Shown here piece after piece: positions 1 to 64,000 of a stretch of DNA of 64,000 nucleotides; the first letter of the stretch is position 1, and each line of letters begins with the position of its first letter. The translations under genes were made by a program, and so were the position numbers. The notes below the pieces were generated by a model. It worked only from the letters and a program-made list of their open reading frames with translations. It was not told the DNA's origin and made no database searches. The stretch is from Amphiscolops sp. MND2022 (lineage: Eukaryota): contig OZ076409.1 of the NCBI GenBank assembly GCA_964187785.1, positions 79,176,001 to 79,240,000 of the forward strand, read 5' to 3'.

Positions 1-298
1 GGATCTCTGCCGTAGTCTTGGTCGATATACGTTGGGTTAAAGTTCACGACTAGGGGAATGGGCCTGAATCGGGTATTGAAGGTGGTGGTGTAATCAGGGT
101 CCCAAACAGAATTTGGTTTTTGGAATAAATGGGTGTTGTTATAGGTGATGGTGATAGCTTTGTCCATCTGTTGTTGCCAGACAACAGAGGGATAGCCCAT
201 CAATTGTTGTGTATACTGATGAAAAGTTTTTGTTGGAGGATCCGACCTGATGTATTGGCGGACGGATATCAGTTCGTTGTATTGGAGTCGTGGCGAAG

Positions 299-9181: not shown

Positions 9182-9423
9182 CTGTACATATGTATTTATG
9201 TACTTACGGACTGTAAACTTTTCTGATTTTCTGTTTGTATTGTTTGTTTCATTTTGTTGTTCTTGATTTCCTGATCCCGTATTTATTTTCCTTGCAAGGG
9301 ATCGTCCAAATGTTCCATTATTTATTCAGAAAATACTACTGTATGGGACTGATAAAAGGAAAAATAAAAGAGAAAAAAGCAGAACAGTTCAGGGTTAATT
9401 TCCTGAACCGAATTTAATTTTCT

Positions 9424-16314: not shown

Positions 16315-17498
16315 TAAGACTGAACCGGGATGAAAACTTGAATTATCAATTCCGGAAAATTAACAGTGTAACCGTTTGTATTATGAACGTCTTTATCAAA
16401 AGGCAGAAGCACAAAGTATGAGTCTTCCTGCAGGGGTATGGGTATTTATACCCCTGAAAGTATGACACACACGATTTTTACATACTTTGATCAAGACAAA
16501 TCATAGGTTTTTACAATCATCATAGGAAAATCCCCGACAACTACAAATTTCCGGGGGACATTTAAGGAATGGCATTCAGAGTCATCATTTTAAGTAGCAA
16601 CTTCAAACAATTTATCGGTTAGACCTACTTCAAGTGTGATGTAAACAAATACCACGGCCTGCATATTTTATGGCAATGTAAAATGAAGGCACGTTCCGGC
16701 ACAAGTTTACTGCAAATTAAGCTGAAAACGGAATGTATTACTATGTGTGGAATTCTAATACTGCATCGATATTCACGAAAATACACTTGCATATCAGAGC
16801 CGGAATAGGCCCAAATCCATAACATGTACTGCGCATATGAAAGACATGGTAAAAGGCCTTAACCGTCCCTTTATCCAAGTTAAAAGTATACAAACATCAA
16901 AACATCACAAACGTATTTATTTAGACTAAAAATATGATTCTAATAACTCCGCGTAAGTAGTGATCCAATTAGGCAACAAAGGTATCATTATGCTCGAATT
17001 GGCCGAAGCCGTCCATTTGACTGGGGGACTGATATAAATTAGCACCGCTTAGTCAATTGGCCATATCCGGCCATCATAAATAAAGCACTCATAATTAGCA
17101 AAAGGAGAGCTCTGATTGGCTAATAACTGTACTGAAAGTTACATCGCCGAGAAGGGACGTTTTCTTACTTGAACACGTTTCCTTCTCGCGATCAGCCTGC
17201 TTATTGTACGTTACCGCTTTGATTAATTTCAACACTCTATTTGCAATACACCGAACTTCCTTTTACAAATCTCAAATCACAACCTGATTTGGATAGCTCC
17301 AAATCGTAATTTTAACAGACTAATATCACGAACAATTATATAAAAATGCACTTGAATAAACAAAACGAATGTGATTAACTAGTAAATATAAGTTTCGGTA
17401 AGGGAAAGATTAGAACGTGGGTAGGGTACCTGGGACAATTTTCTGATTTTCCGCTGACGTCGTTATTAATGTGCCGTCGCAGGCGGCAGCCTGCGACA
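15747..17498 (-). repeat. 5' LTR of element A, 1752 bp
   Basis: Similarity to the left copy stops exactly after ctgcgaca at 17498; PBS abuts 15747. Confidence 0.92.
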
Positions 17499-26629: not shown

Positions 26630-29600
26630 TTACTGCTCGGAAGCCAAATGTGCACTAATATGTATTACAAAATTTGAAACCCTCAATAGGACTGGTGTGC
26701 TTTCTCTTGCCAGCTCTTCGATTTCGTCTGATTGGTCTAACTGGTCGATTCTGATCTGCGTGAATCGGCCATCCGGCCCCCTTGGATTTTTGCCTCGTCT
26801 GGAGAATGAGCTGTCTTCTTTCAGTTTTCTCGGGGATTTCTTTATCAACTGGTCGTGGTGTCCCTCATTGTTGAAGAACGATTAAACTTGCAATGTATCC
26901 GGTTTGGCTGTCATCTTGCATGGCACACATTCGTCGTACTTCTGTTGAAAGTCTTCGGTTATTTTCGGCCACCAAAATACCTTTGTGGCATGGGTCATCT
27001 TGTTAATTGATGGGTGGCCTTTATGCAAAAGTGTGATGACGGTGTTTCGAAGATTTTTTGGTATTATGATTTTATCATCATAAAGCACCACCCCGAACTT
27101 CGTGGATAGATTTTTTGTGTACTGCTTGTATTCTTCTGGTATCTGATTAATCGTTTTTCTTTCCAGGCAGACAACAGGTTTCAGAAGTTTGTCGTCATTG
27201 GTGGTTTCCATTGCGTTTTTTTAATATTTATTGCGAACTTCTGTTATGCTTCACGTACTGTTTCCTTCAAGTTCCATTCGTTATTGTTTTGGACACGGCT
27301 TCCCTGTCCCATCTGAATATATCGTACTCCGGTAGCGCTGAGGTATTTCTCGAAGATAATGGCCCGTACGTCGAGTGATTCGTTCGAATGGGATGACATA
27401 GTTTCTTCACTCTGTTGATCGCTTTCTTCTATTTGTGTTTCTCCGCTTGTTCTTATTTCGTTGTTACTGTTTGTTGGTGTATTTCTGATTTTTCAATCAC
27501 TTTATATAGTTCTTCTCATCTTGATCTTTCCTCCGGGCTTTCTTGGCTCTGTTGTTCCATTCTTTTCCCAATTAGTTTGTTGATCTTTTGGTGCAGCTCC
27601 ATTTCGATTCTTTTAAGTTCCATTCGGTGAACTCTTGGTGGATTGTATTTCTTCCATTCTCCATTTGTCATACTGTTTTGGTTCGGTTATTCTTGTGCTT
27701 TCCATCGATTTAACAAATCAAAGGTATCAGCTGTTTGGATATTGTTTTTCTAATTGTTCAATTTTTTTGATGTCCATTCTGGTAATTGTTTCGTTGTCTT
27801 TTTGGTTGTTGAATGTTAACGTGTAATACCGGTTGTTGAGACGATAATAACAAACTGCGATCGTTCGTTTTGTTCTCACTTGGCTTTGGTTTGTTTTGGT
27901 AGCTCGCCTGTGATTGGTTGAAATTTTGTTCACCCTTCTCTGAGTTGTCTGTTCGAATTTCTTTCTTTCTTAATTCGTCGATGCTGTCGTGATTGGTAAT
28001 GAACTCCATTAGTGGTATTATGCAATTGATTACATACTCTTCGTCGTAGTTTTCGATTCGTTCGGCCTTTGACACCGTTGTGAGTATATTTTCATTATTT
28101 GCATTGTAGTGTGCTAGACATGGGATATATATGATGTATTCTTTTAGATTGTTGAATGCATTCGTATGTTCTTCTGACCAGTTTCATTCGTTGTTCTTTT
28201 TCAGTAGTTTTCTCAGAACAATGGTATTCGCTGATAAGTTTTTAAATATATTTCGAAAGGTATTGTATTGTTCCAAGAAAAGATTTTGGTTCTTTCTCGT
28301 TTTTGGTGTATTTATTTTTGTTATTGCTTCCAGTTTGTCTTGTAATGGACGTATTCCGTGGTGGTCAATTTTGTGTCCAACCCATTCGATTTTTGTCTTG
28401 AAGAATTCGCATTTCCTTGGGTTTAGCCTGTATCCTGCGTTTTCCAGTTTTTTCATCGTTTCTCGCACTTCCGTTTCGTGTTTCTTCAAGTCTCTTTTCA
28501 TGACAATTATTATGTCGTCGAGCCATGACGTGTGTTTGTATTCCAGGGTTTTGTCTATTCGTTCGGGAAGATTGTTGGGATATCTGCCTGTTTGTAGAAT
28601 CCTTTCAAGAACCGGTAGTAACCTGTGAATTCTCCTCCTGTAACGGTGAAGATGCATAGGTTTCTCCTTTTCGCGTCTAATTTTAGCTGCCGTACGCATA
28701 ATCAAAGTCTAATTTTGTTGCCAAAAATTCACCTTCTTCTCCTTCGGAAACTTTTCTCGATATTCTTGAAATTTGTCTCATGTTCGGCATTTCTGGTTTT
28801 CTTTTTTTTGGTCCCTTCGTTCAATTTTCTTGAGTCTAATGCATTTTTTATTGATTTGTTTTTTTCACTGTAATCACTGCCGGGCTCACAAAACCATCTT
28901 CTGTTATTTCGGTTGCTCTTTCTAGGTATCCGTTTTCTATCAGTCGTTTCAGTTCCTTTGCTACTTGGTCCTGTAGGTGTATCGGTATTGGTCTTCCTTT
29001 TTGTTAGATAATTTGTGCTCCTTCTTTTAGATTGATTTTTACCGATAGGTCATTCATTTCGTTGTTGTTGTAGAACAAATCCTTGAATTCGTTCTTCAGA
29101 TCGGCGATTTGGCTTTAATACCGACCATTTGTATGTTGTGTATTTGTATTATGCTGTTGTTGGTGTTTAGGTGTATTCCCAGCCGTTGCATCCAATCTAG
29201 TCCCATTAACGGTGTTGTTGCCTTTCTGGTTATTAGCAGTGGTAATTTCAGTGTTTCTTTATTTGTTTTAACCATTGCTTTTGTCTGACCGATAAATTCA
29301 ATCTTTTGATTGTTTACGTCTTTATAAATGGTAATTAGTGGTTCCCCTTAGTTAACTCGTTAAATAGACAATTTGGAATTAGCGTTACAGGCAATCCACT
29401 GTCTATGATGAAGTTGATTGGCCCCTCGTTTACCAATAGTGTTGTATCGTAGAATGCTTTGGGGTCTTTGCCGTTTATCTTCTGTATTGTATTGTAGTCC
29501 CAATTGTCTTCTTCTGCCGATGATAATTTTCTCTCAATATTATGTACTTTTTTCAATGATCTGCACATTTTCTCGGAATGTCCCCTTCTTTTGCAATTTC

Positions 29601-30720
29601 TGCATTCTGTGGATTCCGCCGGGCAGTTGTGTTGTCTTGACCAGTTGAGTGCTCCACACTGTCCGCACCGGTTGGCTTTGTATTTTATTCTCTGGTAGTC
29701 CGGTTTCTTTCTTGGTCTTCCGTAATTGGATTTGTCCGACCATTTTCGTTTGTACTGTCCCTCCTGTACATGTTGTATTTCTTTTCTGTCGTTAGAGTTG
29801 TTTGAGTCGTTTAGTCTGTCGTACATGTATTCATGTATCAGTTCCGTAATTGTTTCAATTGTCATGTTGCTTTTTCGTACTTTCTGTTTCAATTCGTAAT
29901 CACTTGTTGATCTTCCGATTAATGATAGGAATTTCGAGGGGCTATCAGTTCTGCTGGTGCTACGTTTCCGAATTCACAGTGTTTTTCCACCTGTAGGATT
30001 CGTGTCCATACATCTTCGGCCGTTTCATTTTTTTCTCTAGTTGTTCCGAAGAAATCTGCCCGGCTGTGAAATTTGTTCCGTTCCGGAATAAAGTGTAGAC
30101 GGAACAGTGAGTATAACTGGTTGATGTCCATTCTATTTGGGTCGTTGTCTCTAACGGTTCTCGTCATCTCCGTTATGGCTGATTCTCCCAACGCCCAAGT
30201 GAATAAATCTTTTATCCGGTTGTCTACGTCTGCTCTGTATTGTTCCAGAATTTCTCGGTCTGTGGTCTTCGTTTTAAGATCAATGTTTTCTGTCATCTTT
30301 TTGTATTGTGTAAATCTGCGCCACCACAGTTTGGCTTCTTGAATACCTCGTTTGTCAAAAGTGGGTAGTGTGATCTTCTGGTGGGTCTTCTCATTCTTTT
30401 GGTTTCCTCGTTTTGAGGTCTCTCCATTTGAGGAACTTGTTCCGTCTGATATTTTATATGTCTCCATTGCTTCACTGCGTCATCATGTTCCTATATTGTT
30501 GTAAGGGTAACAAAGAGAATAGATAGCTCGTAACAATGTATTGTTTTTCGTAGCTCAACTTCGATGTAACTGAGTGAGTGTATTGTTAAGATGTACAAGC
30601 ATTTAGAACTAACATAAATGTTGACAGGTACTTAGCTGTCAAGTATGATCAACTGACCTTTAACGGTCTTACTTAAATCTATGACATCATGTCACAGGTA
30701 CAAATTATCGTACGGCGACA
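26630..30720 (-). mobile_element. Decayed, internally deleted Ty3/Gypsy element D (boundaries approximate)
   Basis: Fragments of gag (29919-30467), knuckles plus FIIDSG protease (29335-29892), RT WLDDII (28184-28705) and integrase zinc-binding LHKGHP...CVPC (26882-27211). PBS-like TGATGACGCAGTG ending at 30485. Confidence 0.85.
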
Positions 30721-36330: not shown

Positions 36331-36691
36331 AAAGGACAGTCTTTAAACTTTGCATCTCATTGAATAACATAAATGTTTCATTCTAACAGTGCTATTTTCT
36401 CATGGTGTGTATAACTCAAATAACATTTCAAACGACCCTTAAACCAAAAACGTAATTCCACCAAAAGCGTCCCTGCGTACATGAAGTTCTCCTATGTTTA
36501 CAGGTCATGGCTTTTCATCTATGATTTACATATGATTAATGGAATGGCCATCCCGAAAATTATTTGATGATCATTAAAAGAGATCACGATGCCATTGATC
36601 AAAACCCATGAGTTTAACCATATAAGAAAATGAAGCTGAATGACATTTTCAAGCTTCAAACGTTATGCAAAGAATAAAATACGTACACCAC

Positions 36692-38132
36692 TGTGATAAT
36701 CCTCCTCATCGGATTCTTCGTTAAACATAACTGTTGCATCTAATGTTGTATCATTTTGGTGTATAGGTTTAGCGGGATGCCTTAAATCTCTCATTTCTGA
36801 GGCTTTGAGGGGGATATCTTCGTTTTCAGAGTCTATACTTTCGTTATCAGATGCGTTTACTCCCATAGACCTTTTACCCTTGGATCCCGATGGTTGCTTG
36901 TTTTCTATTTCATTCATCTCTGATCTAGGATTGATTGTCATAGATGTGCTTTTACTGGTTTTTATCTCCATCAGAATCGCATCTAATTTGTTCTCCATTT
37001 CTTCTCTCATTTTAGTGATTCTATCGTTGTTTTTCTGTTCAAAAATCTCAGTCCAAGCTTGAATTTCATTACTGACTTGGCTGGGTTCGACTAGTCTGGG
37101 TCTCAAAGCAGTTTCACCTAAACTTTCTTGACTTTGTAAATTAACATTAGTTAAAGTTTCATTACCTTGACTTGGAGTTTCTATGCGTACTTCGCCTGCC
37201 TCTCTCTCTGAGGACAGAGTTTCTAACCTTCTGGACCTTCGATTTCTTCTATTTCCCATCTTGCTCGAGAGGAAAATTGGGTTGAGGTGCAGAAAGAATT
37301 TGAATTTATTCTTCAATGTTGTGAAAACAATTCAGGTGAAACAAAGAGTTATCAAGGAAACTGCTTTTACAGTGTTTGGGTTTACTGTTACAGAGCAACT
37401 GTCTTTGGTACCAGTTATATTTCAACTGAAGTAAACTGCACTTTTACAAATGAAAAAATCACAAAGCATGACACTCAATTTTAGGGTTGTCATCAATCCA
37501 AAAATACTATAAATAGACTTACGTCAGGGTGACGTAATTCTATTTATAACTTACAAATAGTAATTGCATGACTTCCAGTAATCTAACTATGCTAAAGCAA
37601 CAAGTCCCTGGGAAACCGCTGAATGCCGCACATACGTCATTCGGTTTTCCGCATAGTGACGTATGATCAAAGCTTATTAAAAGCACCAATAAAACATGTT
37701 ATAAGTTAGAATCCGCATGGTACCGCATATGCGTTACCCGGATTACCGCATAATGACGCATACTCATCGTTACTAAACTCACACAGTAAAGTGTCAATGG
37801 CTTTATGTTCACAAAATTAGTTCAGAAAAGACGTCACGTTATTCTAGCTCCGAAGTTAATGAGTGCATATGTTCATTCATGTCAACAAAATGAAAGCATC
37901 AATGTTTAAGGCATTTGTCAAAACATAAACATCAAACAATAAGATTAAAGAGTTTGCATGACATTTTCAAGGTATCAACTGAAAGTTAAATCAACATAAA
38001 TAACAAAAGGAAGTTAAGAGTGTTTAAGAGTTTCAAGTCCTCGAGTTGTTTTAGGGTTCTTTTGGAGATGACTAAGTATTCTCGTTTAGGGTTGTTGCCC
38101 AACAGCTCCAGCACAACTGTGGGGTTGTGACA
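36692..38132 (-). repeat. 3' LTR of B
   Basis: Near-identical to 50954-52394 (about a dozen substitutions by eye). Confidence 0.95.
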
Positions 38133-39135
38133 GTCCTGCACTTTTAAACGAGAATAGAGCAGCTTCAAAACCATCTATGAAAGCACGGGATCTTACTCCA
38201 CGGTCCCTTACTCTCTCGGTGTCGTAGGCGGTTGCCATTAAATATTCGCCCAAAATTTCCAATGCTATTTGATCGTAGCACTTCCCGCACCAATCGCAAA
38301 AGCCAGCTACATTTGGCATCACGGTGGGGAACAATCTGTGCATCTGTCTTTCACTAGTTGGGATAAGTAGCAAATTGGTACTATGTCCCACATGAAAAGG
38401 CAAATTAAATACCTGCTGGTTATTGACCACTTGGGCTTGCTGATGCATATCCATTCTTCCACTATTTGGAGGTATCTGTATCATCAATGGGGCGTTGTTG
38501 TAGACTACCATATTGTCCACTGGAGTAGGGGCTGTCATTTCCTGTTGGTTATAGTTACTCGGGTAGACTGTTTGATGATGGTTATTGAAGATATTGGGTT
38601 GTAGCATTTGGAAATGGCTTGCATTAGCCACGAAATTCGGAGGGTAGGTTGCAGTTGGCCTGTCCACTGGTACGCTCCTTTGAGGATTGTCCCGGGGCGT
38701 TGGTAAAATAGCTGCTGTTGGTCTCCCATAGCTGTTTGTCGATCTTTCCTCCCTAGCTTGGGGTTCCCAAGGTGACATAGGGGAATCTTCTAGTTCAGTG
38801 TCAATGAATGAGGTGGATAGGGATTCGTATATATGTTGATCTTCTTCCATCAAGTCCACTAACTGGCGCTCAATTCTTGTTCCAGAAATGTCGATTACTT
38901 CGTCTTCTCTTGATCCACTTGCTGAAGTAGGAAAAAGGGAAGCTGTCGCCGCTCCCATAAAGGCGGTCATGACATCAGATCGGGGGCCGCCAGGCCTAAA
39001 TCGATCTTCTAACTCCGACACGTCCCCAGGGTGGACAATAAATTCATCTCCAGAGTCACTTGAGACGTCAATTATGACGGGGGACAGCAAAGGTAGCGCC
39101 AATTCTTCGTCACGATTGAATTGTAGATTCTCCAT
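38086..39135 (-). CDS. ORF3 of B (349 aa), CxxC domain, ends inside the 3' LTR
   Basis: Intact ORF. GFCDWCGK...RAFIDGFEAALF...SQPHSCAG aligns with A GCMVCGR...EAYENGLNAGAF...SQPAACDG. Confidence 0.75.
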   Translation of the reverse strand: MENLQFNRDEELALPLLSPVIIDVSSDSGDEFIVHPGDVSELEDRFRPGGPRSDVMTAFMGAATASLFPTSASGSREDEVIDISGTRIERQLVDLMEEDQHIYESLSTSFIDTELEDSPMSPWEPQAREERSTNSYGRPTAAILPTPRDNPQRSVPVDRPTATYPPNFVANASHFQMLQPNIFNNHHQTVYPSNYNQQEMTAPTPVDNMVVYNNAPLMIQIPPNSGRMDMHQQAQVVNNQQVFNLPFHVGHSTNLLLIPTSERQMHRLFPTVMPNVAGFCDWCGKCYDQIALEILGEYLMATAYDTERVRDRGVRSRAFIDGFEAALFSFKSAGLSQPHSCAGAVGQQP

Positions 39136-40619
39136 TGGTATCGTGTGATTAGATAGTTTTGAAGAATGAAAATTACGAGCTTTATTGTTTTGGATTATCT
39201 CGGTTGAGGTTTATTTCAGATGAGCTACTGCTTCTAGTTTTCTAATGAGACCTTATGATAGTTGTCCCATAAATCCCAGTTGTTTCCGGTGATTCCCGCG
39301 GAAATGCTGAGCGTCATGATTTCTATCTTATCTGATACCCTTATATGGGTTTTAAGGAAATATAGTCGGATATTTCAAAGAGATGAGTTTGATCTGTATC
39401 CATCAATGAGGTGTAAACAATTCGATTTCAAGTGTTTTCTCAGTTTCATCTTGTAATATTACACCTCTTGCTGCTCACTATCTCACTGAGATGATGATTT
39501 AAATGATTTATCAACAATTTTCTTCCTATTTAGGAAGGTAAATTAGGTTTACAGTGAAATAATTATTCATGTTGTTTTGAACAGGGTTAATTCATCCAAT
39601 ATTACATGACTGAATTGAGAGAAAATAATGAAAATGTTTCAGGAAAGAGTTTCAAACAGATGTATCAAAAATTAAAACATGAGTTCGTCTATCTAATACA
39701 TTCACACTTTCATCGGTCCTGCACTTAAAAAGTGCACCATGGAGTTATATCTTACAATTTTTCACTCATTTTAAATTTCTCAAAAGATTAACATATGACG
39801 TTGCCACATAACAAGTGCCATACATCCTGGTAAATTCAGTTTTCACATTTGAAGGTAAATTCGTGTTTCCGTACATCGAATACTGCTCATTGCCTAATAG
39901 TTTACTATTAGCTGAGAATAAGTTTGTTTTAATCACATGTACTGCACATCTTGCCACGTAGTATTATTTGACTTTGTGTAGTCAAGAATGAATACTATTA
40001 CGTCATCCTGTAGTTGGCCATCTCTTTTCTTCGCTGTTCGTTATTGTGTGTTATTCCGCATGATACCGCATACACGGCATACGTATCTCCGCATGATGGC
40101 GTATACTCGGCACCTGTAGTTCCGCATGATGACGCATAGTGTTTCACTCAGTATCCATAATTCCGCATAATGCCGTATATTGTATGTAATGCAGTGTATA
40201 TGCTGCGCATTTTCTCTATTCACTCTTGTTTGCAATAAGAGTGAATAATGCGTCACTTGTTGGTGTCAATTATGTAATCTCTCACTCTGGCAGTAGTGAT
40301 TGACATTTAATTGACCAATCAGATTCGAGCGCTATTTGATTCAAAGTTTGCTGTTTGGTAACATTTGCTTTTTGCCTGTAATTTATACGCCACGCCTTCT
40401 ATGCTTGCATATTTGAGTATCTTCTGCATTCTAATCTTCACCAGTCCTTTTGTATTTTTTGAGTAATTAGTCTCATAGTCAAAGTCTTTCTCATCAACTG
40501 CTACACTTTTCTAGAATTCCATACTCTTGTATTCCATTGCCGTCATTTAAAATTCGTTTCTTTATTGTTTGTGTGACAACGACACTGTATTTGCATCTGT
40601 ATTATCCCATATCCAATAA

Positions 40620-43600
40620 ATGGAGTCTGGTAGTCGAAGGAAATCACGCAAGGACCAGATTACGAGGCGACAAGCTGCATCGTGGGGGTTCAAATCTCCC
40701 ACTGAGACTTCTCCTGGTTAGTTCAAATTTGTTTTCGTTTTGATTCAGATCAGGGTTTATTTGATTGTGGGGTTTATCATGCAAAGCTGGCCAGGCTTGC
40801 AATCAAAAATAACCATTATATGATGGTTACGATTTTCAATTTTCGGTACCGGTTTTCTTCAAAACATATTTGTTTCGAGTTGATTTAAGGGCGGAAGTAG
40901 AGTGTTTCATTTCTTTCACCGCGTCCGATTCAGATTCAAACCAAACTACTTCCTGTGATTTATCTGCTTCCGCTTCCGCTTTTAGCAGTTAGTTGTTTGT
41001 TTTAGTTGAACTAGGAGCTACTCAGAAATCACCTTCCCGATCCCCGACGAAGATTTATACACCTCTTCAAGTTGCTGAGCCTGGTCAATGCAGTCGTTCT
41101 ACTCCTGATATTCTTCAACAAACTACGGCTGTAGAGGATAGTGACGGGATTGAACGCGTATCCTTGACTAATTTAGCTGAATATCCCAGCTTTGTACCGC
41201 TCCTGGTCCTTGATTCTACTGACGGGGAAGAGAATATTCCAACTGAGGAGATAGTACTGTCCGATCAAGAGACTCCAGATATGAGTGCCGCCAATTCACC
41301 ATTGCCTCAAACGCCCCCCGTTGTGACTGAGAAGCGAGAGCCAACTACTAATACTACCACTTCTCCCCGCTTTACTGAGTTTCTCCGAACCCTCCGAGGA
41401 ACTATTGTCCCTACAGGAGGACGCAAAAATGTGGGAGTAGATATCCCACTTTCATCTGATGTGGAAGAAGCGGAGCCTGAGGTTGATGGAACAAAAGAGT
41501 CTGCTGAACATGCGGAGAACAATGATTTGGAGGCAGATCTATCAACTGATTCTTTGAGTGGCCTCGGAGGAGAGACAGATGGTGAAATGGTCCAAAAAGT
41601 CACCATCACACAACGTGAAGCAATTGCCTTAACGAATGTGCTGGACAAGATTCCACGAACGGTAATGCGGCAAGACAATCAAGCTACAGTTGACAACATT
41701 ACTTTGACCGTAGTTGACAAGCCTTCCAACCCACCTGAACCAAATGTACAAGATGACGAACAAGGGGGTTCCGCTGAATTTCTTTCAGGGGACAGTAGAC
41801 CTAATCCGAGTCCTGACGATCGGCCAGTTCTGCGGGGTAAGAGGCGAAGGCCGAAATATTCGCTAACTACCGCCATGCTCAAGAAGCACCCTGTGGTGCA
41901 ATATTTCGCAACGGGCCCTCTCGACAGGAGCAAAAGCCCCTACAAATGGTGGTGTCGTGTCTGCAGGATTGAGCTGTCCCTAATGAGCAGGGGGGTGCTC
42001 GAGTTATTGTCACATTTTCGGACCGAGACTCATTTACTAAAGGAGCATCGGATTCGTCTCGAAACACCCGGGTTACCCCTGTTCGATCAGAATGAAAATG
42101 AATTGCATGGAGTGGGGTTACAAGAGGCCAAGAGAAGAGCCAGGGAGTCCCATCCCATCGCCCCCCAACTGGACAGTTGTCGTCTACTTGTGGGCCAGGA
42201 CAGGCTACCGGAATTCAGCTCAACCACGAACCCGAGTGAGAGCGTCCTCGCTCAAATTTGCATTCTGGAACACGGGCTACGTCATGGTGGGCATGTTGAC
42301 CTTCTACTTGGAATTTGGGAGGATATGACTCGGCTAACACCAGGGAGCAGCGCTCAGACAACTTCCCACAACTGGACCAAACATCGACTTTATGTAAGTA
42401 TTATTGCTCTCTAAAGTTTGCTTCGTATGATTTCTCTGTTTTCCAAAAGGTTGTCTTGTTTAGGCCATCATAACTTACATGTTCCGAGAACTGATGCATT
42501 ACTGTGTGGTTACAACTGGCATTACTGGAATCTGTTCATTGCCGTACCAGACTTCTTTTACTGCCAACTATCTTTACTTGAATTTCTGGTCGGGTAACAT
42601 CTATTATCAAGTATGTTTGGGGTCTGGACCACGAGGGATTCTTTTACCCAAAAAGATTCTCACTTTAATCTCCTCCTATCTGAGCCTATTCGAGAATCCG
42701 CCCAACTGCCTCAGCCTAATCAATTTCGATGAAAGACTCAGCACTAGTTTGAGTTCATCGCTCCCTGGAAGGAAGCGACCTATGATCGTAACTGCATTCG
42801 GTCCCACTGAATTGGAGAAGTGTCTTGCGATGCCCACATCCCGCATTCTAGAGAGACACGATTTCAGAACTATTCTCGATTTCTGTTGATGAAGTTAAGG
42901 ACTGCACTCGATCAAGAGTGGTTGCAATCCGTTCCAGTTCTCCATAAGGTATAATATTTCCCTCATTTTGTGTTCAAATGTATTTTTCATCAAGGTGTCC
43001 AATCTTTTCTGTTTTTGTAGTGTGTGTTGCAACTGTCGTATAATTTGGAAGAAGCATCATCACTCATCGCACTACTCTCAGCCAATTGGGACAAGGTGTT
43101 GGAACACCTAAACCGGATTTCACGTCTGCCAGCTTTTCGGTTCCATATGAGAGAGGTAATAACTTGTTTCGCCATCTTTCCTTTCTATTATTGTAGTTCT
43201 GTGAACTAATCTTCATGGATTGTTTTAGCCCAGCACACTAGATGAGTGCTTCAGGCTTGATACTGCCTACCTCGCCAGGCTGTTTGTCATTCGCTGCGTA
43301 CTGGATCATTGTTAGTATCAATTTATTCCACTAAGATGTTGCTCACTTGGTATAGAAAATTTCGCTTCCAAACCTCCGTTTCTTTGAATCTTTCCAATTT
43401 CTTCAGAGATCATTTTTTATAGGCGCACATTCTGTCTTTTTGTAACTCTTCTTCTTTTAGTGGTAATTAGAGCATTACCGCAGGATGACGGATATACGTC
43501 ACTTCAATTTCCGCGTAGTACCGCATATGCGGTATCTCTTTTTCCGTATAATGCCGCATAATCATCGTCAGAAATCCTGCCTTTTGCTTGATTTCAGCAT

Positions 43601-44746
43601 AATACCGCATTGAAATAGCTCGTTTTTACAATTAATGTATCTTCCGCGTATGAGATTACATAATCGTCTTGTCCTGTTTCAGATACTTCAGCCTTCTCTG
43701 AGACCGATTCAGGATATGGAGCTGGGTTCAGACTGTTCAACCAATTTGCTGTCTTCGTGTATAGTCAGCTCCAAAGTCTTTTGCCAGACAGCGTCCTAGG
43801 AAGCATCTCTGATTGGGATAATTACTTGAAATTGGACTTAACCCAGGCAGACCTCCCTTTCAAGAGTGCCGACGATTTCGTTTTGAACTCTGATTTCCAC
43901 CGACTTGTTACTTCAAGTAAACTACCAAGACCAAGCAAATTCATCGACCAGTCTATTGCTTTTTACAAAGCTTTCTGTCGCATTCTGTTACAACACAAAA
44001 TTGTCAAGTCCGATCTTATTCGAGGGCTCTCCTGCTTTGACTCTGTCATGGTTCTCGACGGAGGAGAGGATCGGTATATTTCCGCAATAGAGCAGCTAAC
44101 GAGTCACTTCGCATCGCATGGCAGCATAACAGCAAGCGATAAGACCAAAGCAATTAGTCAGTACAGGGCCCTGGTGGTCAAGTTTCGCTCTTCGCAAATC
44201 GATCGGACAGTGGATTGGTTTACATTCCTCTCTGGCCACTATGAACTGCATTGTCGACCAGAACTGCATCAAGTTTTCAAGTACGCTTGCCTCTGTCTTC
44301 CACCAATGGCGAAGTTTACTGTTCGTTTTGAGGTCCCCATACCAGAACTTGGCCCTGATGAGGAGGTATTTCAGTCCTGTGTAACCAGCATTCAGGTATC
44401 TTATGCGACGGTGCCTAATGTGAGCAGTCTGTTTCGTGATCCTCGATCCATTAATCGTGTCTTCCGCTTGATAGGGAAAGGCAAAGATTTGCTCAGCGAT
44501 CGCAAGTTCTCAGTGTGGAATTTCCTTAAAGGCAGTGGATTCCGCAGGACCAAATGGCAGACGAAGTTCGAGAATTCATATAAGAGTGTGGTTGCTAGGA
44601 GAGAAGAAGCGCTGCTTCCCGACGATTCTGATGTTCCTTCTGCTAGTCATTCATCTAGTAATGCTAGTTCACCGGCTTCACGAGCTTTAACTGGTAAAGT
44701 TACACTGTCAATGCCGCGCTGTGTCGATGAAAGGAAGGATGATTAA
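40620..44746 (+). CDS. Antisense spliced gene in B: zinc-finger + hAT-transposase-like protein (~1083 aa). Exons 40620-40716 (tentative), 41006-42393, 42464-42948, 43021-43155, 43229-43310, 43683-44746
   Basis: GT-AG introns in matching phases. WWCRVCRIELSL...LLSHFRTETH finger; LSCFDS; RPELHQVFKYACLCLPP. One 1-nt deletion near 42881. Confidence 0.8.
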
Positions 44747-44956: not shown

Positions 44957-47900
44957 TTAATATCTGTATGTGTCAGAGTAATTTGGGTTGGGGTTAGGTC
45001 GTAAATTGTATCTATCACCACGGGTATTTATGGGTTGTTCTTGTGATGGGGTATTTTGTGGATTTTCTGGGGTTTTTTGGGTATCATCATCAAGTGAATT
45101 ATTTGCGTCTTTTTGGGTTTTTTGGGTACTTTGGTCATCTTCAATGATTTGTTGTGGTTTTTCATTTTCGTGGTTTTCATCCGGTTCAGTGGTCTGTTCC
45201 ACTGGGCTCCCCCCACTATTTTTTGAAGATCCTGGGGAGGGTGGGCGGTTTTCTTCAGGTATTTGAATTGGAATGTATTCTGTGTCTTCAGTATTTAATG
45301 AATATTCTGAAGGACCATCATCAAAAGGATTTGAACCAAAGTTCGTGTTCCATGATTGGGCATATAGGTCATCATTTGTTATAGGCATTTGGTCATCTTT
45401 TTGCCAATCAGTTTCTCGGACAAAAATGTCTGCTAAGGGCGCTTGCGGAGTGAATTTCCGTAGACGAATCCTGTGTAACAGTTGCGTTTTGTTAGTCCCG
45501 AGTCTCCGGACGATGTAGTTTTTGTTAGGGAGCACTTTTTCTACTTTATATGGCCCGCACCATCTGAATTCTCGGAATGGTATTTTCGTCGCTTGAGTAT
45601 CGGCTTTTGGGTTAAGAATGTAGCAGTAATCCGTTGTTTCGAGCGGAGCTGCTTTCGCTTTACGGTCATAGTAAGCTTTGTATTTGAGATATGATTGCAT
45701 GATGTTCTTTTTGGTTTGATCTAGAAGGATTTTCATGCGTTTTTGAATTTCTTCCGCTACATCTGCTTGCGGTTGGTATCTTGGGTTAGGATTGTATCCA
45801 AGTTTGTAGTCTAGGATATTGTGTGGTATCCTACCATGGAAGACTCGTGAATGTTCACAACCGAGTGATGCATGGTATGTGGTGTTGTGATTGAGGACTG
45901 CCAAGGGGAGGTATTTATGCCAGTTGTTCCTGAATTCGCCTGTTGCGGCTTTTAGGTGCATTTTCACTGATGCATGTGTTCTCTCAAGGAGTCCTATTGT
46001 TTGGGCATGTTTCATTGTTGCGTGTTTCATTTCAATTCCAAGTACTGCCGCAACTTCGTGAGTTACTTGTGCATTGAATTGAGTGCCTAAATCCGTGATT
46101 ATCGTTGTTGGAAGGTATGTATGTTTGCATAAGATGTCCATGATAACCCTTGATACTGCTGTTGCAGTAATACGAGTTACAGGGTAGGCAAACAAGTATT
46201 TTGAGAAGACGTCTATTGCTGTGATAATATGGTCATAGCCTCCACTAGGGGGAAGGTTTGGTAAAATGTCCATTTGCAAAATGTCTTCCGGACCGAGATC
46301 CCATTCCGGACAGTTAAGAAGTTCTGTCCTAAGGAGATCATTGTTGATGCGTTTCGTTTGGATGCAAATTTGGCAATTACTGACCCATTTACTGATGTAT
46401 TTTGCCATACATGGGTAGTAATATTTTTGTCTTGCTTCTTGAATCATTTTCGTAATTCCTGGATGGTTCGAATTATGGCCATGTAAGGCTTGAAGAAATT
46501 CGTCTAGGAGTTGGATTGGTAGGAGGATTTGGTAGTGAGATATAGTTCCAGTGTCGGTGTAATATTTTCGTGTGAGAACTTCCTGTTTAATTTCTATTCG
46601 TGTTATGTTTTGTAAGTAGTGCTGGTATCGGTAGTCTGACGCTAGTTCATTCTCGTCAAAAGGGTTTCCTTCGAGTTTTGCTCGGAGGTTTCTCAGGACT
46701 ATGTCGTTATTTTGCTCAAGGCGGATTCTTGCATTGTCCTTAAAGTATCCCGAAGAGCTGGAAATCAGACCTGATGCAGGTTTGTGGAATTGTTGTAGCT
46801 CGGAAACAGCATTTTCTGGATCATTGTGTGTTTCGGTTTGTGCTTGATTTCGAATGTTTTGCTTTTCTTCCCATAATTGATTTTCATCAATTTCATCATC
46901 TGGGAGGACATATATTTGTTCTTCTTCAACGATGCCAGTTGATTGAATGTTCACCTCAACCGCTTTCGTGTGAATGTCGTTGCGGATTGTGAGTTCCAGT
47001 TTTTCTGTTGGGTCGACTTCCGTTCTAGATAAGAAGTCGGCAGCAGTGTTCATTGTTCCGGCTACGTGGGCGATCACGAAATTGTATTGCAATACATAAT
47101 CGCAGGCATTCCAAAGTGCTGTAGGGATCATTTTTGTTTGGAAAAATCGGGTTACAGATCGATTGTCAGTAAACACGATTACTGGGAAGGTACTACCCCA
47201 CATGAGATGTCCGAATTCAACAAATGCAAAATATATTGACAGAAATTCCTTTGCATAAATTGACATTTTCGTCTGTGTAGGGTTGAATGTTTTTGAACCA
47301 AAGGCTATGGGTGCATATGTTTTGCGCTTTGATTGGAGCTTCTGGTTTGGGTCATCCTCTATCATGATAGCATATCCAGCTGCTGTGAAACTTGCATCGG
47401 ACATGACTATAAGTTGCTTGTTTTTCAGCGGTTGTTTTAGTGCTAACTGGCAAGAATTTTCTAGGAGTTTGTTGAGGTTCGTGAAGTCTTCTACCAAATT
47501 TGTCGGTACATAGAATTTGGAAGTTTCTTTGAGGAGTTTGAAGAACGGTGAGAGCCGTTCCGAAAGGCGTGGTATGTAATTTCGGTAATAGTTTAAAAAT
47601 CCGATATACCTCTGTAAGGCCTTTTTTGATTTCGGAAAGCGAAGCTTTGAGAGGAAGTCTCTTACTTTCTCGGCTTGAGGGGCAACTCCATCTGGTGTGA
47701 TTGTGCGTCCCAAGAAGTCGACCTGTTTCACTCCAAAGTGGCATTTTGACATGGAGAGTTTTAATCCTGCATTGCGTATGCATTCAAAGACAGTTCTGAT
47801 ATTGGTACACAGTTGTTTTGTGTTATTTGCCGCAATGCCAATGTCATCGACATAATGTGCACATTGGTCTGCTTTAATTGCTCTGTCCAGGTACTCTCTC

Positions 47901-49842
47901 ATAAAACTTGAAAAGGCAGAAAGTGATCTGCTGAGACCCTGGGCAAGGCGTCGATAAGCGAATGTTCTGCTGGCAAAGTTGAAGGCGAGCATTTGGATGG
48001 ATTGGTAATCCGCCATCTGCAAGCAGTGGTAAGCTTGGGAGCAGTCCAATTTGCAGAAAAGCTTTTTCCCTGCCATATGTTGGGCTGCATCTGATAAAGT
48101 GCTTACTGGGTGGTTGTTGTTGACGTAATCTTCGGTGATGAGGTTGTTGATTTTTCGTAGGTCAACAAGGAGTCTGAGGCGCCCGTTAGGTTTGCCTTGT
48201 GCAAATATTGGGCTTGCGTATTTAGAAAAAGGTAGTGTGGTAATGATGCCATACTTATGTAGAAGTGCGAGTTCCACTGTAATGTCATCTTTAAGATTGA
48301 TAGGGGTTGGCAAACTTTGGCTGTATGCAGGTCTGTCGTCGTTTGGCGTTAGTTTTACTTTGAATTCACGATTTATGCCAATGTCGAAACGGTGTCTGGC
48401 AAAAATATCATGAAATTCAATGAGGATCTCTTCAATTTCTTTCCGTTCGTCAGGACTGAGTGTTGTGTCGGTCCAGTCGAAGTTTGAAAGGAAAGCTTTT
48501 CTGGAATTTTCATTATCTTGTGGGTTTAATTTTTCAAGTTCTTTGAGTTCTAGGAGTTCTTTGTAGATTCGTTGTTGAATTGGAGTGTATGTTGCTGGGT
48601 CACCTGGTTCTTCAGGAGTAGGGAACCAGTATGTCTCCTGTTCTGAGTTCGTTTTTGGGACTTTGAGGAGTTCGTTTATGTAGACGTCCGTTGTTTCCTC
48701 ATGTTGTATCATGAAGGACAGTAACGCTGGGTCTACTGGCTGTATATGTTTGATTTGCTCTGGTGTCAGTATCTTGAAATCCGCTAGGTGGGTATCAAGG
48801 GTTATTGTATATGGTAAATCAGAGAAATTAATGATTTGGTATCCAATAGCATTATTGTTAACGGTACTGAGTGATGCAGTGATGAAGATGCTATCGTGGT
48901 TTTCAAACTGATGTGATGGGGTGACTATTCCAGTTGCGTCATGGTCTTTCAGATGGGGCATTCTGCTTGCAATTGCTAGGGTTTCGCCTGGTTGCAAGGT
49001 ATATGTATTTTCTGCAAACAATGGTGTTGCTTGTCGTATTGATGTTTGGGTGTCGGGTTTGAGCTGCATTGAAAGGTAGGGGAAGGCTGGATGCCTTGGG
49101 TGACATCAAAGATTGCGTTATTTCTACGGAGAAAACACAATCCAATTAACGGGTTTGGTAAGTTTTTCATAATGATGAAATTTTCCTTTAACATGAAGTC
49201 GGCCACTTCAAATTCAAGTAGAACAGTACCAATCGGGACTTCCAGTTGTCCATTGGCCACCATAATTTGAAAGTTTGGTGGGGGACCAGTTTCTTTGATT
49301 GCTTCGTTTGCTAGCAACTTGATTTTGTTGAGGTCTTGTTCGGAGATTGCACTTGTAAGGGCTCCTGTATCAATAAGACCATCGAGTGTGAGTTTTTCGA
49401 AGTCCATTGGAATGTAGTACATGTGGCGTTTTCGCTTCAATGTCAAGGAGGTTGAGATTGGTAGATATGACAAGTTTCGTTCTTTGTCAAATTGTATGTG
49501 TTCAGAGAGGTCTTCATTCAACAAGGGTTGTTTTTGATCATCACAAGAAGTTTTCATTGTGGCGTAGTTTTTGATGGGAGATTCGTGGTGAATTTCTAAG
49601 TTTGGGTCTGTTTTAGGGTGGGTTGGTTGTTTTGTGAAGTAGTTGTCTGGTGCATCTTGAAAGAGTTCATATAGTTCTTCTGGTGATGTTTCCAGGGTTG
49701 ATTGTTGAGAGTTTTGTGTTGTTGAGTTCGTGTCAAAAATTGGTGTTTTTGTAGGTTTTGGACTCAGTTGATGCTGCCAGTCATCGGCTGAGTTTGATTT
49801 TTGTGGTGATTTTGTGTAAAGGCGTGGCGTTTCTAGTTTAAA
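44957..49842 (-). CDS. pol: Pol of B (PR-RT-RNaseH-IN) with one frameshift near 49085
   Basis: LIDTGA, YVDD, SDAS, HHCC, DDE core, WCGPY motif. The -1 frame is open from the slippery site at 49836-49842. Confidence 0.93.
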
Positions 49843-51521
49843 TCTTTCGACGAGGATTGTTGGTTTCTTTCGATTCTGGGTCTGATTGGCTTTTTAGCTC
49901 GCTTGTATTCTTCTATAACTTTCTTTTGGGCTTCAGTTAGGTTCCATTTTGGTGGTCTATTATCCATATTGGCACCAAAATAGCAGTCTTCTTCTTCATG
50001 TCCCGGAGTTTTGCAATTGGGACATTTAGGTGCATCCGGGTCTTCTTCTAGTTTTCGTCTTTTAGCTAATTTAGGACAGTCAGTCATCATGTGGCTGGCA
50101 TCTTTGCAGTAGCGACATTGGTCATTTTTGAGTGTTTTGTCGGGTACTGTTTTCGGAGTTTGTTTTTTGGTTTTGTCAACTTGTTTTTTGTTGGTTTTTT
50201 CAGTGTTTTGTTCTTTTTTGGTAACGGTCATCTGAGTTTTGACGAGGGCTTCGTCGGCCTCTAGACCATTAAGTTCCATCTCTCTTTCAAGATGTTTGAC
50301 AATTTGGTCATAAGAGCCATTTTCCAGATAGGCTTGGTTGATGGATTTTTTAAGATGCGGTGGCATCTTGGCGTAGAGTAGATTCTCTATCATATGGTGT
50401 GCATTGTCACCGAAAGCTTTTTCTGCGCTTTCTTGTAAATCCTCAAGAAAATCAGGTAGCTTTTGGTTTTCTGGATCAAATGTTAGTCGGTGAAATCTAT
50501 GTTTTGCCGAAGCACTTGATTCTGGTTTGACGTACTTTCGGCGGAAAACTTTTAGGATGTCTTCCAGTGTTGTTGTGGGTGTTCTCTGGATGTTTTTGAA
50601 GGTTTTTAACGCCAATCCTCTGAGATGTGCATGAAAGTGGTTGATCTTCATTTCTTCGGTGAGATTTGGCTGCATTTTGAGGGTTGTGTGGAATAAGTCC
50701 TCGAAATATTCGAATTTTTCATTTTTTTCGGTTTTTCCATTGAATGTGAGTGTGTTTTTAGGGTGAAATAGGGATTGTTGTGAGTTTTTATTGGCTAGTT
50801 TTTCTATAGCCTGGGCAATTTGGTTGACCGGGTCAAGTGGTTTTGTTGTGGATGTTGAAGTGTTGCGGTCTGCGTGGGATCCTAAGGTGTCGTTTAGAAG
50901 TTGGGTGTTTTGAGAGCTTTGTCTATGGAGTGGTTTGTTGGCTCCTGTCACCATGTGATAATCCTCCTCATCGGATTCTTCGTTAAAAATAACTGTTGCA
51001 TCTAATGTTGTATCATTTTGGTGTATAGGTTTAGCGGGATGCCTTAAATCTCTCATTTCTGAGGCTTTGAGGGGGATATCTTCGTTTTCAGAGTCTATAC
51101 TTTCGTAATCAGATGCGTTTACTCCCATAGACCTTTTACCCTTGGATCCCGATGGTTGCATGTTTTCTATTTCATTCATCTCTGATCTAGGATTGGTTGC
51201 CATAGATGTGCTTTTACTGGTTTTTATCTCCATCAGAATCGCATCTAATTTGTTCTCCATTTCTTCTCTCATTTTAGTGATTCTATCGTTGTTTTTCTGT
51301 TCAAAAATCTCAGTCCAAGCTTGAATTTCATTACTGACTTGGCTGGGTTCGACTAGTCTGGGTCTCAAATCAGTTTCACCTAAACTTTCTTGACTTTGTA
51401 AATTAACATTAGTTAAAGTTTCATTACCTTGACTTGGAGTTTCTATGCGTACTTCGCCTGCCTCTCTCTCTGGGGACGGAGTTTCTAACCTTCTGGACCT
51501 TCGATTTCTTCTATTTCCCAT
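49833..51521 (-). CDS. gag: Gag of B (first ATG at 51521, MGNRRNRR...)
   Basis: TFNGKTEKNEKFEYFEDLF; knuckles CRYCKDASHMMTDC and CPNCKTPGHEEEDC; homologous to A gag. Confidence 0.93.
   Translation of the reverse strand: MGNRRNRRSRRLETPSPEREAGEVRIETPSQGNETLTNVNLQSQESLGETDLRPRLVEPSQVSNEIQAWTEIFEQKNNDRITKMREEMENKLDAILMEIKTSKSTSMATNPRSEMNEIENMQPSGSKGKRSMGVNASDYESIDSENEDIPLKASEMRDLRHPAKPIHQNDTTLDATVIFNEESDEEDYHMVTGANKPLHRQSSQNTQLLNDTLGSHADRNTSTSTTKPLDPVNQIAQAIEKLANKNSQQSLFHPKNTLTFNGKTEKNEKFEYFEDLFHTTLKMQPNLTEEMKINHFHAHLRGLALKTFKNIQRTPTTTLEDILKVFRRKYVKPESSASAKHRFHRLTFDPENQKLPDFLEDLQESAEKAFGDNAHHMIENLLYAKMPPHLKKSINQAYLENGSYDQIVKHLEREMELNGLEADEALVKTQMTVTKKEQNTEKTNKKQVDKTKKQTPKTVPDKTLKNDQCRYCKDASHMMTDCPKLAKRRKLEEDPDAPKCPNCKTPGHEEEDCYFGANMDNRPPKWNLTEAQKKVIEEYKRAKKPIRPRIERNQQSSSKDLN
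50942..50953 (-). promoter_or_regulatory. Primer-binding site TGGTGACAGGAG of B
   Basis: Directly after the LTR-terminal CA; same 12-mer as in A. Confidence 0.82.
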
Positions 51522-52394
51522 CTTGCTCGAGAGGAAAATTGGGTTGAGGTGCAGAAAGAATTTGAATTTTTTCTTCAATGTTGTGAAAACAATTCAGGTG
51601 AAACAAAGAGTTATCAAGGAAACTGCTTTTACAGTGTTTGGGTTTACTGTTACAGAGCAACTGTCTTTGGTACCAGTTATATTTCAACTGAAGTAAACTG
51701 CACTTTTACAAATGAAAAAATCACAAAGCATGACACTCAATTTTAGGGTTGTCATCAATCCAAAAATACTCTAAATAGACTTACGTCAGGGTGACGTAAT
51801 TCTATTTATAACTTACAAATAGTAATTGCATGACTTCCAATAATCTAACTATGCTAAAGCAACAAGTCCCTGGGAAACCGCTGAATGCCGCACATACGTC
51901 ATTCGGTTTTCCGCATAGTGACATATGATCAAAGCTTATTAAAAGCACCAATAAAACATGTTATAAGTTAGAATCCGCATGGTACCGCATATGCGTTACC
52001 CGGATTACCGCATAATGACGCATACTCATCGTTACTAAACTCACACAGTAAAGTGTCAATGGCTTTATGTTCACAAAATTAGTTCAGAAAAGACGTCACG
52101 TTATTCTAGCTCCGAAGTTAATGAGTGCATATGTTCATTCATGTCAACAAAATGAAAGCATCAATGTTTAAGGCATTTGTCAAAACATAAACATCAAACA
52201 ATAAGATTAAAGAGTTTGCATGACATTTTCAAGGTATCAACTGAAAGTTAAATCAACATAAATAACAAAAGGAAGTTAAGAGTGTTTAAGAGTTTCAAGT
52301 CCTCGAGTTGTTTTAGGGTTCTTTTGGAGATGACTAAGTATTCTCGTTTAGGGTTGTTGCCCAACAGCTCCAGCACAACTGTGGGGTTGTGACA
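50954..52394 (-). repeat. 5' LTR of B
   Basis: Matches 36692-38132; PBS abuts it. Confidence 0.95.
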
Positions 52395-54814
52395 ACCACT
52401 AGAACCGAAATGATAGCACCCGCAATCAAGTGATAATTTGCATGGTTTTAAACATTCTTTTGTTTCGACAAAAATATGTATTAAGGATCATCGATTATCG
52501 TTCTTGGCATTGAAGTATTAGACAATTATTATTTTCCGCCCATATTTCATACGAGAAGGAAATATTTAAATAAACCGCGTTTTTTTTCCAAAATATGCCT
52601 CGTTCCAATGCTATATCAAAACAGAAGGGTGTCACCCATAGAAATCAACTAAGAAAAAGTTAGTTTCAGGTATTCGAAGATAGGTATTCGATAGGTATTC
52701 GAAGAGTTTTTTGGACTTTTTGTTTGACCCCAAAAACGACATCAAAATCAGCCAAAATGATCAACAAGAATGACCCAAAAATGACCTTTGAATCGAAAAC
52801 AGCCTCGAATTGAAACCTATTTTAACAAAAATTCCAAAAATCCTGATTTATTACGTTTCTATGCAATTTCTGTCAAATTTACTGTAGAATTCGGGGTTTG
52901 GAAAGTTAAAAACTGGCAACAAAAAACAAATTCGTAGTCCCAGAGACTTTTTGGAGGAAATGAATGCACTTTTTGAAAACAGAAATGCTTCAAACTGAGA
53001 TCCAATTGGCAAAATATCCAGAAGCTTCCGAGTTTTTACGTTTCTATGCAATTTTCGTTAGACGTCGTGGAATGTAATGTTAAACAAGTTCGACACTAGC
53101 CTTTTGTGAAGACATAAATGCTATTGTTTGACAGAAAACGCGTTGCCCTCAGATTGACCCCGAAAATAGCGAAAAGACTAAGAGTTTACAAAATTCAAAG
53201 ACGAAAGAACAAACTATAAACTAGTTATTTTGATGAAAAATTTGGAGTGCCTCCAAACGAAAAATTTCTCAAAGAATTTTGTTGTTCTTCTCAACGACTT
53301 TTGAGGAAATTTTTGGAACCTTTTTGAAACGTTAGAACTTTGAAAACGTTCAAACCAACTGAAATTATTATCCAGTAGATTTTTTCAAGAGAATTTCTTA
53401 AGACTCATGTCGGAAAATTCCTCGAATGGACTCGAAAAAAGTCGAAAATATACGTTTTGACACTTTTCTGAAAATTTTGTGCAATTTTGGATAATTATTT
53501 AATTATTCGTAGATTAAAAAGTTTGAAATGCTGCAAACAAAAACTCTAGCCAAGCAGTGTACGCTTTTCATACAAAATTCGACAATTCTCTAGGTTGAAC
53601 GAAGCCACAGATTGAACAAAACTGTCAAAAAGCTTGAACTTTTCTGTAACGTTTAGTTGTTTTAATTCTGCATTTTTTCAAAAATTTCAAAATTTAAAAG
53701 TTGATTATTTTGAAAATTTTCATTGTTAATTTGTTAAAATTTTCAGAGGTTTAACGTGTTGTAATATTGAAACTATCAACAACGAATAAATGCGTTACAA
53801 AGTGGGCTTCTTGGAAAAAATGTACTGTTTCTTGGTAGAAAAATACCGCGTGGTGACCCCCTATCAACTTCAATTTCTTGTTGGAATCAGCCTCAAAACT
53901 ATCTCAAAATAACATTAAAGTTCATTTTATTGACAAATTAATGCCAAGTTCCAACCAATTCCATCAATTTTCAAGAATGGAACTTCCATTTACCTGACCA
54001 TTGAAACAATAGGCCAAAATTTCTCATTTATCGACAACATGCTCCCAACTTACGAATGTTTTTCTAAAATAGAAAATCGACAGGCTCATGGTCAGAACAT
54101 GTAGCCACCAGCACGGGCTTCGAAAAGATATCGAACTACTGCAAAAAGAAAGTGCTGAATTTTAAAAAAAATGCTCAAAAACGTGAAAAATTCGACCTTT
54201 TTGTGAAACTTGAGTTATTCATTAAAATCCGAACGAAATAACTACCTACGCAGTACACCTTTCAAAGAAATATTTTGCAGTCTGGCAGGTAAAAAACATC
54301 CGAATCACCGCCAAAAATGCAAAATGTAAGAAGTTTTCATCCATTACCAGTTTTTTTGGTGTTTTGCAACTGAATGGATGATGAAAAAGCCTAAAGGGCC
54401 CCTTCTACATTTTTCGGCACTATAAGACTGTTAAAAACTCTCATTTTTAGTTTTTTTGGAAAATTTATAATTTTTTCCGAAATTTTTCAATGTCTCCAAA
54501 GGGTTGCTCCTTCATTTTTTGATATTTTGCAACAAACTGGATTTTCAAAACGCCCAAAGAGTCCCCCCCTTCTAAAATTTTAAAAACTTTGCGCTTTTTG
54601 AGCTTTGGATATGGCGCCGACTTTAGACGTTCCCGTCTTGTTCAGTTTGGTTTCAACTTCTAAATGCTCTGATGAGGCCCCTGTGCTATTTTGGTCTTTA
54701 TGAATTTCGGTCCTCAACCCATTGTTGTGCTCTACATGACTTATGTCTGGTTTTTTTAGAATTCCTCCCTAGGACCTTTCATCGATGCCATATGCTTAGG
54801 TTGTTTCAAGATAA

Positions 54815-60348: not shown

Positions 60349-60547
60349 TGATTTAGGCTAAAAAGATATTTTCACATGAACGCAAGAAGGAATACACGGT
60401 ATACAATTGACCTAGTAAAAACACTTAACAAAGACAGATTCAGCGGTCTTCATTAAAATTAGTTTCCAACATTGGTTAAAACAAAATGTAGGTTAAAAAG
60501 GAAGGCAATTAGCCTTTCAAGTGGCTATCTTTTGGTGCCACTGCGAT

Positions 60548-63500: not shown

Positions 63501-64000
63501 GACTGCATTCTGGCAGGAGTGCCATGTCTTGCGAACCATTTGTTTAGGATAATCTTTGCAGTCGTCTGTGCGTCATATTCATCGTGTGCACATGGGATTG
63601 CCTCTGCAAACTTGGTAAAATGGTCGATGATGACTAGCAATCCATTATTTCCTGACGTTGTCTTGCACAATTTCAAATGGTCAAATTGCACCAGATCATT
63701 AAAATTGCTGCTGTTGATACTCTGTAGGGGGTAACAGGGATTCCCAGCGGGATGCTTCGTCTGTTGGCATGTTAAGCAATGCTTAATATGATTGACGACA
63801 TCACGCTTGATGCCTGGCCAAGTGTGGCGCTCTTGTATCCTCGCCAATACTTTGCCAACGCCTTGGTGTCCTGATTCATCATGCGCTCTGTACAAGATTT
63901 CATGCTGGTAGAGCTGGGGCATGACAATCATACACGGTCGTACGTGCATCGCGCGTTGCTGCGGAATGTAATTGACACATAAAATGTCATTTTGGTTCAG
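60548..64000 (-). pseudogene. pol: Pol 3' part of C: integrase, disordered linker, macrodomain-like tail; in-frame stops at 61043 and 60734
   Basis: The frame continues through both TAA codons to a stop at 60548; integrase motifs are clear. Confidence 0.85.

Follow-up and report, generated by a model that had tools for sequence, protein, structure and literature searches.

Extra open reading frames (ORFs) in antisense orientation are known from plant Ty3/gypsy retrotransposons, among them gene23 of maize Grande and the antisense ORFs of rice RIRE2 and of Retand, which lie between pol and the 3′ long terminal repeat (LTR) and occur in most copies of their families. The Grande antisense gene has its own promoter and a nuclear product, and the antisense ORF of Retand carries a TRP28/Transposase_28 domain (PMC7264820, PMC11963269, PMC6317226). 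The origin of most extra antisense ORFs is unknown, and they show no similarity to other transposons (PMC7264820). Here we describe a gene in a comparable position within a 64-kb stretch of DNA (referred to as the window) from Amphiscolops sp. MND2022, taken from a 1.07-Gb assembly (GCA_964187785.1, contig OZ076409.1, positions 79,176,001 to 79,240,000). The window holds two minus-strand Ty3/gypsy elements, A and B, and in each of them a plus-strand gene lies between the end of pol and a sense ORF3, tail to tail with pol. This antisense gene has five introns, belongs to a conserved family and resembles a whole hAT transposase, and its product is a candidate regulator of the element that carries it.

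In both elements the antisense gene consists of six exons and five introns of phases 1, 0, 0, 0 and 1, and the spliced product amounts to about 1,100 amino acids in B and about 1,280 in A. In B, exon 1 (40620–40716, plus strand as for all exons of the gene; 97 nt), assigned from its conservation in five of six aligned copies, is followed by a phase 1 intron (40717–41005). Exon 2 (41006–42393) encodes a variable low-complexity N-terminal part, a basic cluster KRRRPK, a BED/Spin-doc-like zinc finger of the form C-x2-C...H-x5-H (41947–42033) and a helical region, while exon 3 (42464–42948; 485 nt, against 486 in the family) encodes a putative RNase H-like core without conserved acidic residues. 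Exon 4 (43021–43155; 135 nt) and exon 5 (43229–43310; 82 nt) lead to exon 6 (43683–44746), with a helical region and then a low-complexity tail. The four introns between exons 2 and 6 (42394–42463, 42949–43020, 43156–43228 and 43311–43682) measure 70, 72, 73 and 372 nt, and all run from GT to AG. The gene of A (4757–9181, plus strand) has exons at 4757–4772, 4972–6935, 7033–7518, 7615–7749, 7863–7944 and 8019–9181, separated by introns at 4773–4971, 6936–7032, 7519–7614, 7750–7862 and 7945–8018, with inner exons of 486, 135 and 82 nt. The initial annotation had placed these last four introns correctly, with phases 0, 0, 0 and 1 in B as in A, and had overlooked the first, phase 1 intron in both copies. 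Its inner exon lengths, and a tryptophan at residue 23 of the 45-amino-acid exon of A and B, are borne out by the translations, and the low protein identity it reported between A and B amounts to 26, 19, 16, 11 and 25% per exon.

Neither window copy is intact. Exon 3 of the B copy is one base short near 42,880, so that the frame is broken; this gap, which the initial annotation had located at about 42,881, is private to the window B copy, since none of the 20 other near copies examined departs from the family length here, and it reflects either a mutation or an assembly error. The last exon of the same copy stops 13 codons early relative to near copies (353 versus 366 codons), and the A copy contains two internal stops, at codons 203 and 1117. 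Intron 1 of both copies contains strongly conserved blocks (40880–40985 in B, 4890–4940 in A) with CGGAAGT-like, ETS-like words, forming an inverted pair in B; the blocks are possibly an enhancer.

To define the family, the last exon was used in genome searches. For B these listed 131 scored matches out of 6,350 first-look candidates, and for A 150 out of 5,676, figures that are not copy numbers. A sample of 78 loci was composed of 40 of the 131 B matches and 20 of the 150 A matches, hand-chosen for spread, together with 18 loci chosen by their reverse transcriptase (RT). The protein alignment predicts 624 splice sites in these copies, of which 587 carry a canonical GT or AG at the expected place, a pattern that is not due to chance; the remainder are shifted (4), non-canonical (25) or without an anchor (8). 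Counting only copies in which both ends of the exon could be placed, the length is 486 nt for exon 3 (61 of 70 copies), 135 nt for exon 4 (68 of 68) and 82 nt for exon 5 (72 of 73). Introns vary in length up to 17-fold, and intron 5, which is enlarged in clade B, ranges from 64 to 1,077 nt. The family comprises four clades with common intron columns at 22–42% protein identity; clades C and D, represented by two loci each, show the same columns, with the integrase downstream in four of four loci and an exon 3 of 495 nt in clade D. The integrase lies downstream on the opposite strand in 59 of 60 gene-anchored loci. An RT-anchored sample, formed from every seventh row of the RT match list (n = 20, two of which overlap with the gene-anchored set) and covering RTs at least 95% identical to that of B, contains the exons in 19 copies, and the remaining one has only most of the last exon.

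The family extends beyond this genome. The last-exon profile matched 704 clusters at 50% identity (E up to 0.001), and the 20 of them that were looked up all lacked a functional name. A scan of 308 public proteins gave seven that extend over more than one exon; two of these run exon 5 directly into exon 6 and one runs exon 4 almost directly into exon 5, indicating that the predicted junction is a real joint of the reading frame. One exon-spanning protein is encoded on an 89-kb contig and reaches at most about 31% in its matches to the present genome, which implies that the family is present in other organisms.

The ratio of nonsynonymous to synonymous substitution (dN/dS) was estimated for the 26 of 78 loci in which both the antisense core and the integrase are unbroken. 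For the antisense gene it is 0.04–0.16 in clade A (22 pairs) and 0.12–0.22 in clade B (8 pairs), and silent sites are saturated in 151 pairs. Of ten bootstrapped pairs, three were measurable (0.17, 0.051 and 0.057) and seven were saturated, with dN of 0.10–0.20. These values indicate that the gene is under purifying selection. It is also no more decayed than the integrase, as the antisense core is unbroken in 37 of 78 copies over 2,145 nt and the integrase in 44 of 78 over about 1,035 nt. The initial annotation had regarded the gene as a working part of the element rather than passive cargo; purifying selection, its presence in 19 of 20 RT-picked copies and the conservation of splice sites in four clades agree with this.

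Trees built from 30 loci place every one of the four clades on a single branch, for the antisense protein as well as for the integrase, with 22–24% identity of the antisense protein and 63–66% identity of the integrase between B and the other clades. Within clades the DNA trees disagree, sharing 6 of 23 splits with one strong conflict, and loci L065 and L067 switch partners with support in both trees. Sliding windows show that the conflict arises from exchange of the antisense cassette as a block: between the window B copy and three other copies the flanks diverge by 2–10% and the cassette by 20–51%, and the comparison of A with locus L078 gives a like contrast. The long vertical inheritance proposed initially is therefore upheld by both trees between the four clades and fails within them, where the comparisons show block exchange of the cassette between near-identical pol lineages.

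As for the identity of the protein, three leads, each below significance alone, point to a hAT transposase, as they follow one another in hAT order (BED-like finger, RNase H fold, last exon). The C, C, H and H of the finger are invariant in 30 aligned copies, and the A copy of the finger exon gave an Atlas lead of 0.85 to clusters of GTF2IRD2, FAM200 and ZBED5. The putative RNase H fold of the antisense protein matches Hermes, and the best structural match of the last exon among 48,161 chains is Hermes residues 368–609. The description of the antisense protein as a degenerate hAT transposase is supported, though below significance. The protein shows no Pfam match to BED and none to TRP28 or the plant mobile domain. 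The catalytic triad of Hermes is given as D180, D248 and E572 (PMC6027215). With the corresponding sites mapped by secondary structure, neither the ends of strands 1 and 4 nor the stretch that follows the LCL motif contains a column that is acidic throughout the four clades, and catalytic activity has probably been lost. Among the 25 longest inverted-repeat pairs listed per element, no terminal pair shared by A and B encloses the gene. The host genome also contains ordinary hAT transposases with recognisable catalytic motifs (loci L130, L132, L133 and L142), none of them detectably related to the antisense gene. Loci L136–L140 hold a multi-copy ORF of up to 1,122 amino acids with a SET-like start, repeats and zinc fingers, which resembles another mobile element.

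A 16-bp motif, CCGCATnnTG[AC]CGCAT, provides a candidate target. At two mismatches it occurs 14 times in the window, always within element B, forming arrays in the 3′ LTR (three copies, 37649–37761, plus strand), upstream of the antisense gene (four copies, 40056–40178, plus strand), in intron 5 (four copies, 43478–43610) and in the 5′ LTR (51911–52023). Among the loci scored for intron 5, all 52 from clade B contain the motif there, compared with 0 of 19 from clade A. Across 57 clade-B loci there are 431 matches on the plus strand and 1 on the minus strand, mostly spaced by 32–33 nt, against 0.02 per 10 kb in the shuffled control. In the genome, 1067 exact matches contrast with 0 for the reversed control, and the first matches listed include LTR-spaced pairs and sites within known copies. 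Part of the motif presumably resembles a bZIP half-site. The zinc-finger core is nearly invariant in clade B.

We propose that an ancestral Ty3/gypsy element acquired an intron-containing hAT-type transposase gene in antisense orientation. Judging from how LTR elements replicate, its introns would not be recognised by the spliceosome on the genomic RNA and would persist through each reverse transcription, being removed only from the antisense gene's own mRNA. The transposase would have lost its catalytic triad and terminal repeats and retained the zinc finger and the whole fold, and selection on transposing lineages may have maintained the gene since. Dead transposases that retain finger and scaffold are the usual source of domesticated DNA-binding proteins. 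Most likely the antisense protein would act in the nucleus as an oligomer and regulate the element that encodes it through sequence-specific DNA binding. Its targets in clade B may be the phased 16-bp arrays, which lie in the LTRs, ahead of the antisense gene and within intron 5; binding there would promote or tune transcription in a manner comparable to TnpA and VANC. Expression of the protein, its binding to the arrays and its regulatory effect are predicted. We are evenly divided on whether a catalytically dead transposase, domesticated by a retroelement, acts as a DNA-binding regulator of that element. More tentative, and somewhat short of an even chance, is the fuller version, in which a whole transposase gene, introns included, was domesticated as a catalytically dead, sequence-specific LTR regulator and became an exchangeable cassette of numerous divergent types that co-evolves with the phased arrays in one clade. 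Two observations weigh against a link between the antisense protein and the arrays, namely that no motif array was found in clade A loci, element A included, and that CpG decay is weak.

The dead hAT transposase could alternatively act at integration, binding LTR DNA in the pre-integration complex and contributing to nuclear import, end pairing or target choice. The presence of arrays in both LTRs, the basic clusters ahead of the finger in A and B and the seemingly intact transposase scaffold are compatible with such a role, and plant antisense ORFs have been suggested to assist entry into the nucleus (PMC7264820). We nevertheless regard it as unlikely, because arrays also occur upstream of the antisense gene and in the intron, where a promoter or enhancer fits better, and because the free movement of the cassette between integrase lineages argues against tight co-evolution with the integrase. 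The arrays might instead serve a host transcription factor, with the antisense protein doing another job, such as countering host silencing by protein contacts. The retention of the gene without arrays in clade A would be understandable in that case, yet all 14 window matches fall in element B and the first genome matches include LTR-spaced pairs and known copies, and we likewise consider this improbable. A cassette for lineage competition, whose divergent types exclude or repress rivals, with diversity kept by frequency-dependent selection and spread between pol lineages, seems a long shot: silent-site-saturated cassettes do occur on pol backgrounds only 2–5% apart, and the antisense protein diverges much faster than the integrase (22–24% versus 63–66% identity between B and the other clades), but low dN/dS values prevail throughout, none of the measured pairs shows a sign of positive selection, and template switching could suffice for module exchange. 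That the gene is a passive relic, left by an ancient DNA transposon lodged in the element and merely travelling with it, is scarcely credible. In favour of this reading, neither window copy is intact and the core is unbroken in just 37 of 78 copies. Against it, the integrase is equally broken (intact over about 1,035 nt in 44 of 78 copies), dN/dS is 0.04–0.22, exon lengths and splice sites are fixed between subfamilies with saturated silent sites, and the 25 longest pairs listed per element include no terminal inverted repeats shared by A and B around the gene.

The carriers themselves are ordered as expected for Ty3/gypsy elements; by Pfam, A and B each encode gag and a protease-RT-RNase H-integrase, together with the sense ORF3. 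Element B, on the minus strand, is bounded by a 3′ LTR (36692–38132) and a 5′ LTR (50954–52394), each of 1441 bp with TG...CA ends and differing from each other by 0.9%, and by a 5-bp target-site duplication (36687–36691 and 52395–52399). Its pol (protease, RT, RNase H, integrase; 44957–49893, minus strand) is split over two frames in the window copy, and its gag frame (49833–51593, minus strand) starts within the 5′ LTR and includes a primer-binding-site-like sequence that begins with TGG just after this LTR. The same layout, with gag beginning within the 5′ LTR and the primer-binding-like site inside the gag frame, is seen in both elements (50942–51593 in B, 15735–16359 in A), and we take it to be Ty1-like. 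By eye, no obvious polypurine tract precedes the 3′ LTR of A or B. The sense ORF3 of B (38086–39210, minus strand; 374 amino acids) enters the 3′ LTR. Like that of A (3088–3948), it has neither a Pfam family nor a transmembrane-like stretch and carries a C-x2-C near its end, and sliding windows suggest that ORF3 is swapped as a module too. Element A belongs to a tandem pair (window 1–17498; neighbour at contig position 79,169,698). In the neighbouring unit, 14,323 bp away, the last exon is identical, stop included, reflecting either a recent duplication or an assembly artefact. A third LTR-type element (56032–64000) has a distant integrase and a 1,441-amino-acid sense ORF without a Pfam match, and no antisense-gene exons were detected in its part inside the window. 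A further, decayed LTR element at 27758–30479 retains RT and gag remnants identified by Pfam.

It is an open question where the antisense accessory genes of LTR elements come from and what they do (PMC7264820); this family offers a traceable, hAT-like origin. The proposed scenario would explain the antisense orientation, as introns survive in it. The family also shows that genes rich in introns can persist under selection within genomes that replicate by reverse transcription, where standard ORF-based annotation would overlook them. If the scenario is true, a transposase has been domesticated by another class of transposon and not by the host, and the route from dead transposase to transcription factor extends from hosts and DNA transposons to retroelements. 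Natural variants number in the hundreds and a candidate target sequence is at hand, so that the regulator idea is directly testable.

Compared with known systems, the antisense protein appears to share with hAT transposases (Hermes, and the Buster-type fingers of GTF2IRD2, FAM200 and ZBED5) the order of finger, RNase H-like core, helical insertion and C-terminal part, following the hAT layout described in PMC6027215, and differs from them in having no conserved DDE residues, terminal inverted repeats or Pfam match and in being borne by a retroelement. VANC of VANDAL is described as binding arrays of uniformly oriented motifs in the introns, intergenic parts and termini of members of its own family (PMC5735166), and TnpA of Spm as transposase-derived, such regulators losing their catalytic residues (bioRxiv 10.64898/2026.08.24.746577). 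Clade B resembles the VANC systems in its family-specific, same-orientation arrays in non-coding parts, whereas none were found in clade A. VANC and TnpA, however, belong to plant DNA transposons and counter DNA methylation, while the present gene is carried by an LTR retrotransposon, binding of its product is predicted and CpG hypermutation is weak. HBZ, a short bZIP protein, is not known to derive from a transposase. Encoded by the complex retrovirus HTLV-1, it is another antisense-encoded nuclear accessory protein of a retroelement (PMC11963269). That source does not use the word "intron", and in the literature searched, which was mostly open-access and did not extend to Repbase annotations, we found no LTR retrotransposon described as carrying a hAT-derived antisense gene with multiple introns. 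Relative to the plant antisense ORFs, the gene described here has five conserved introns, encodes about 1,100–1,280 amino acids and resembles a whole hAT transposase; antisense accessory ORFs were already known, and what is new is this multi-intron, hAT-like version.
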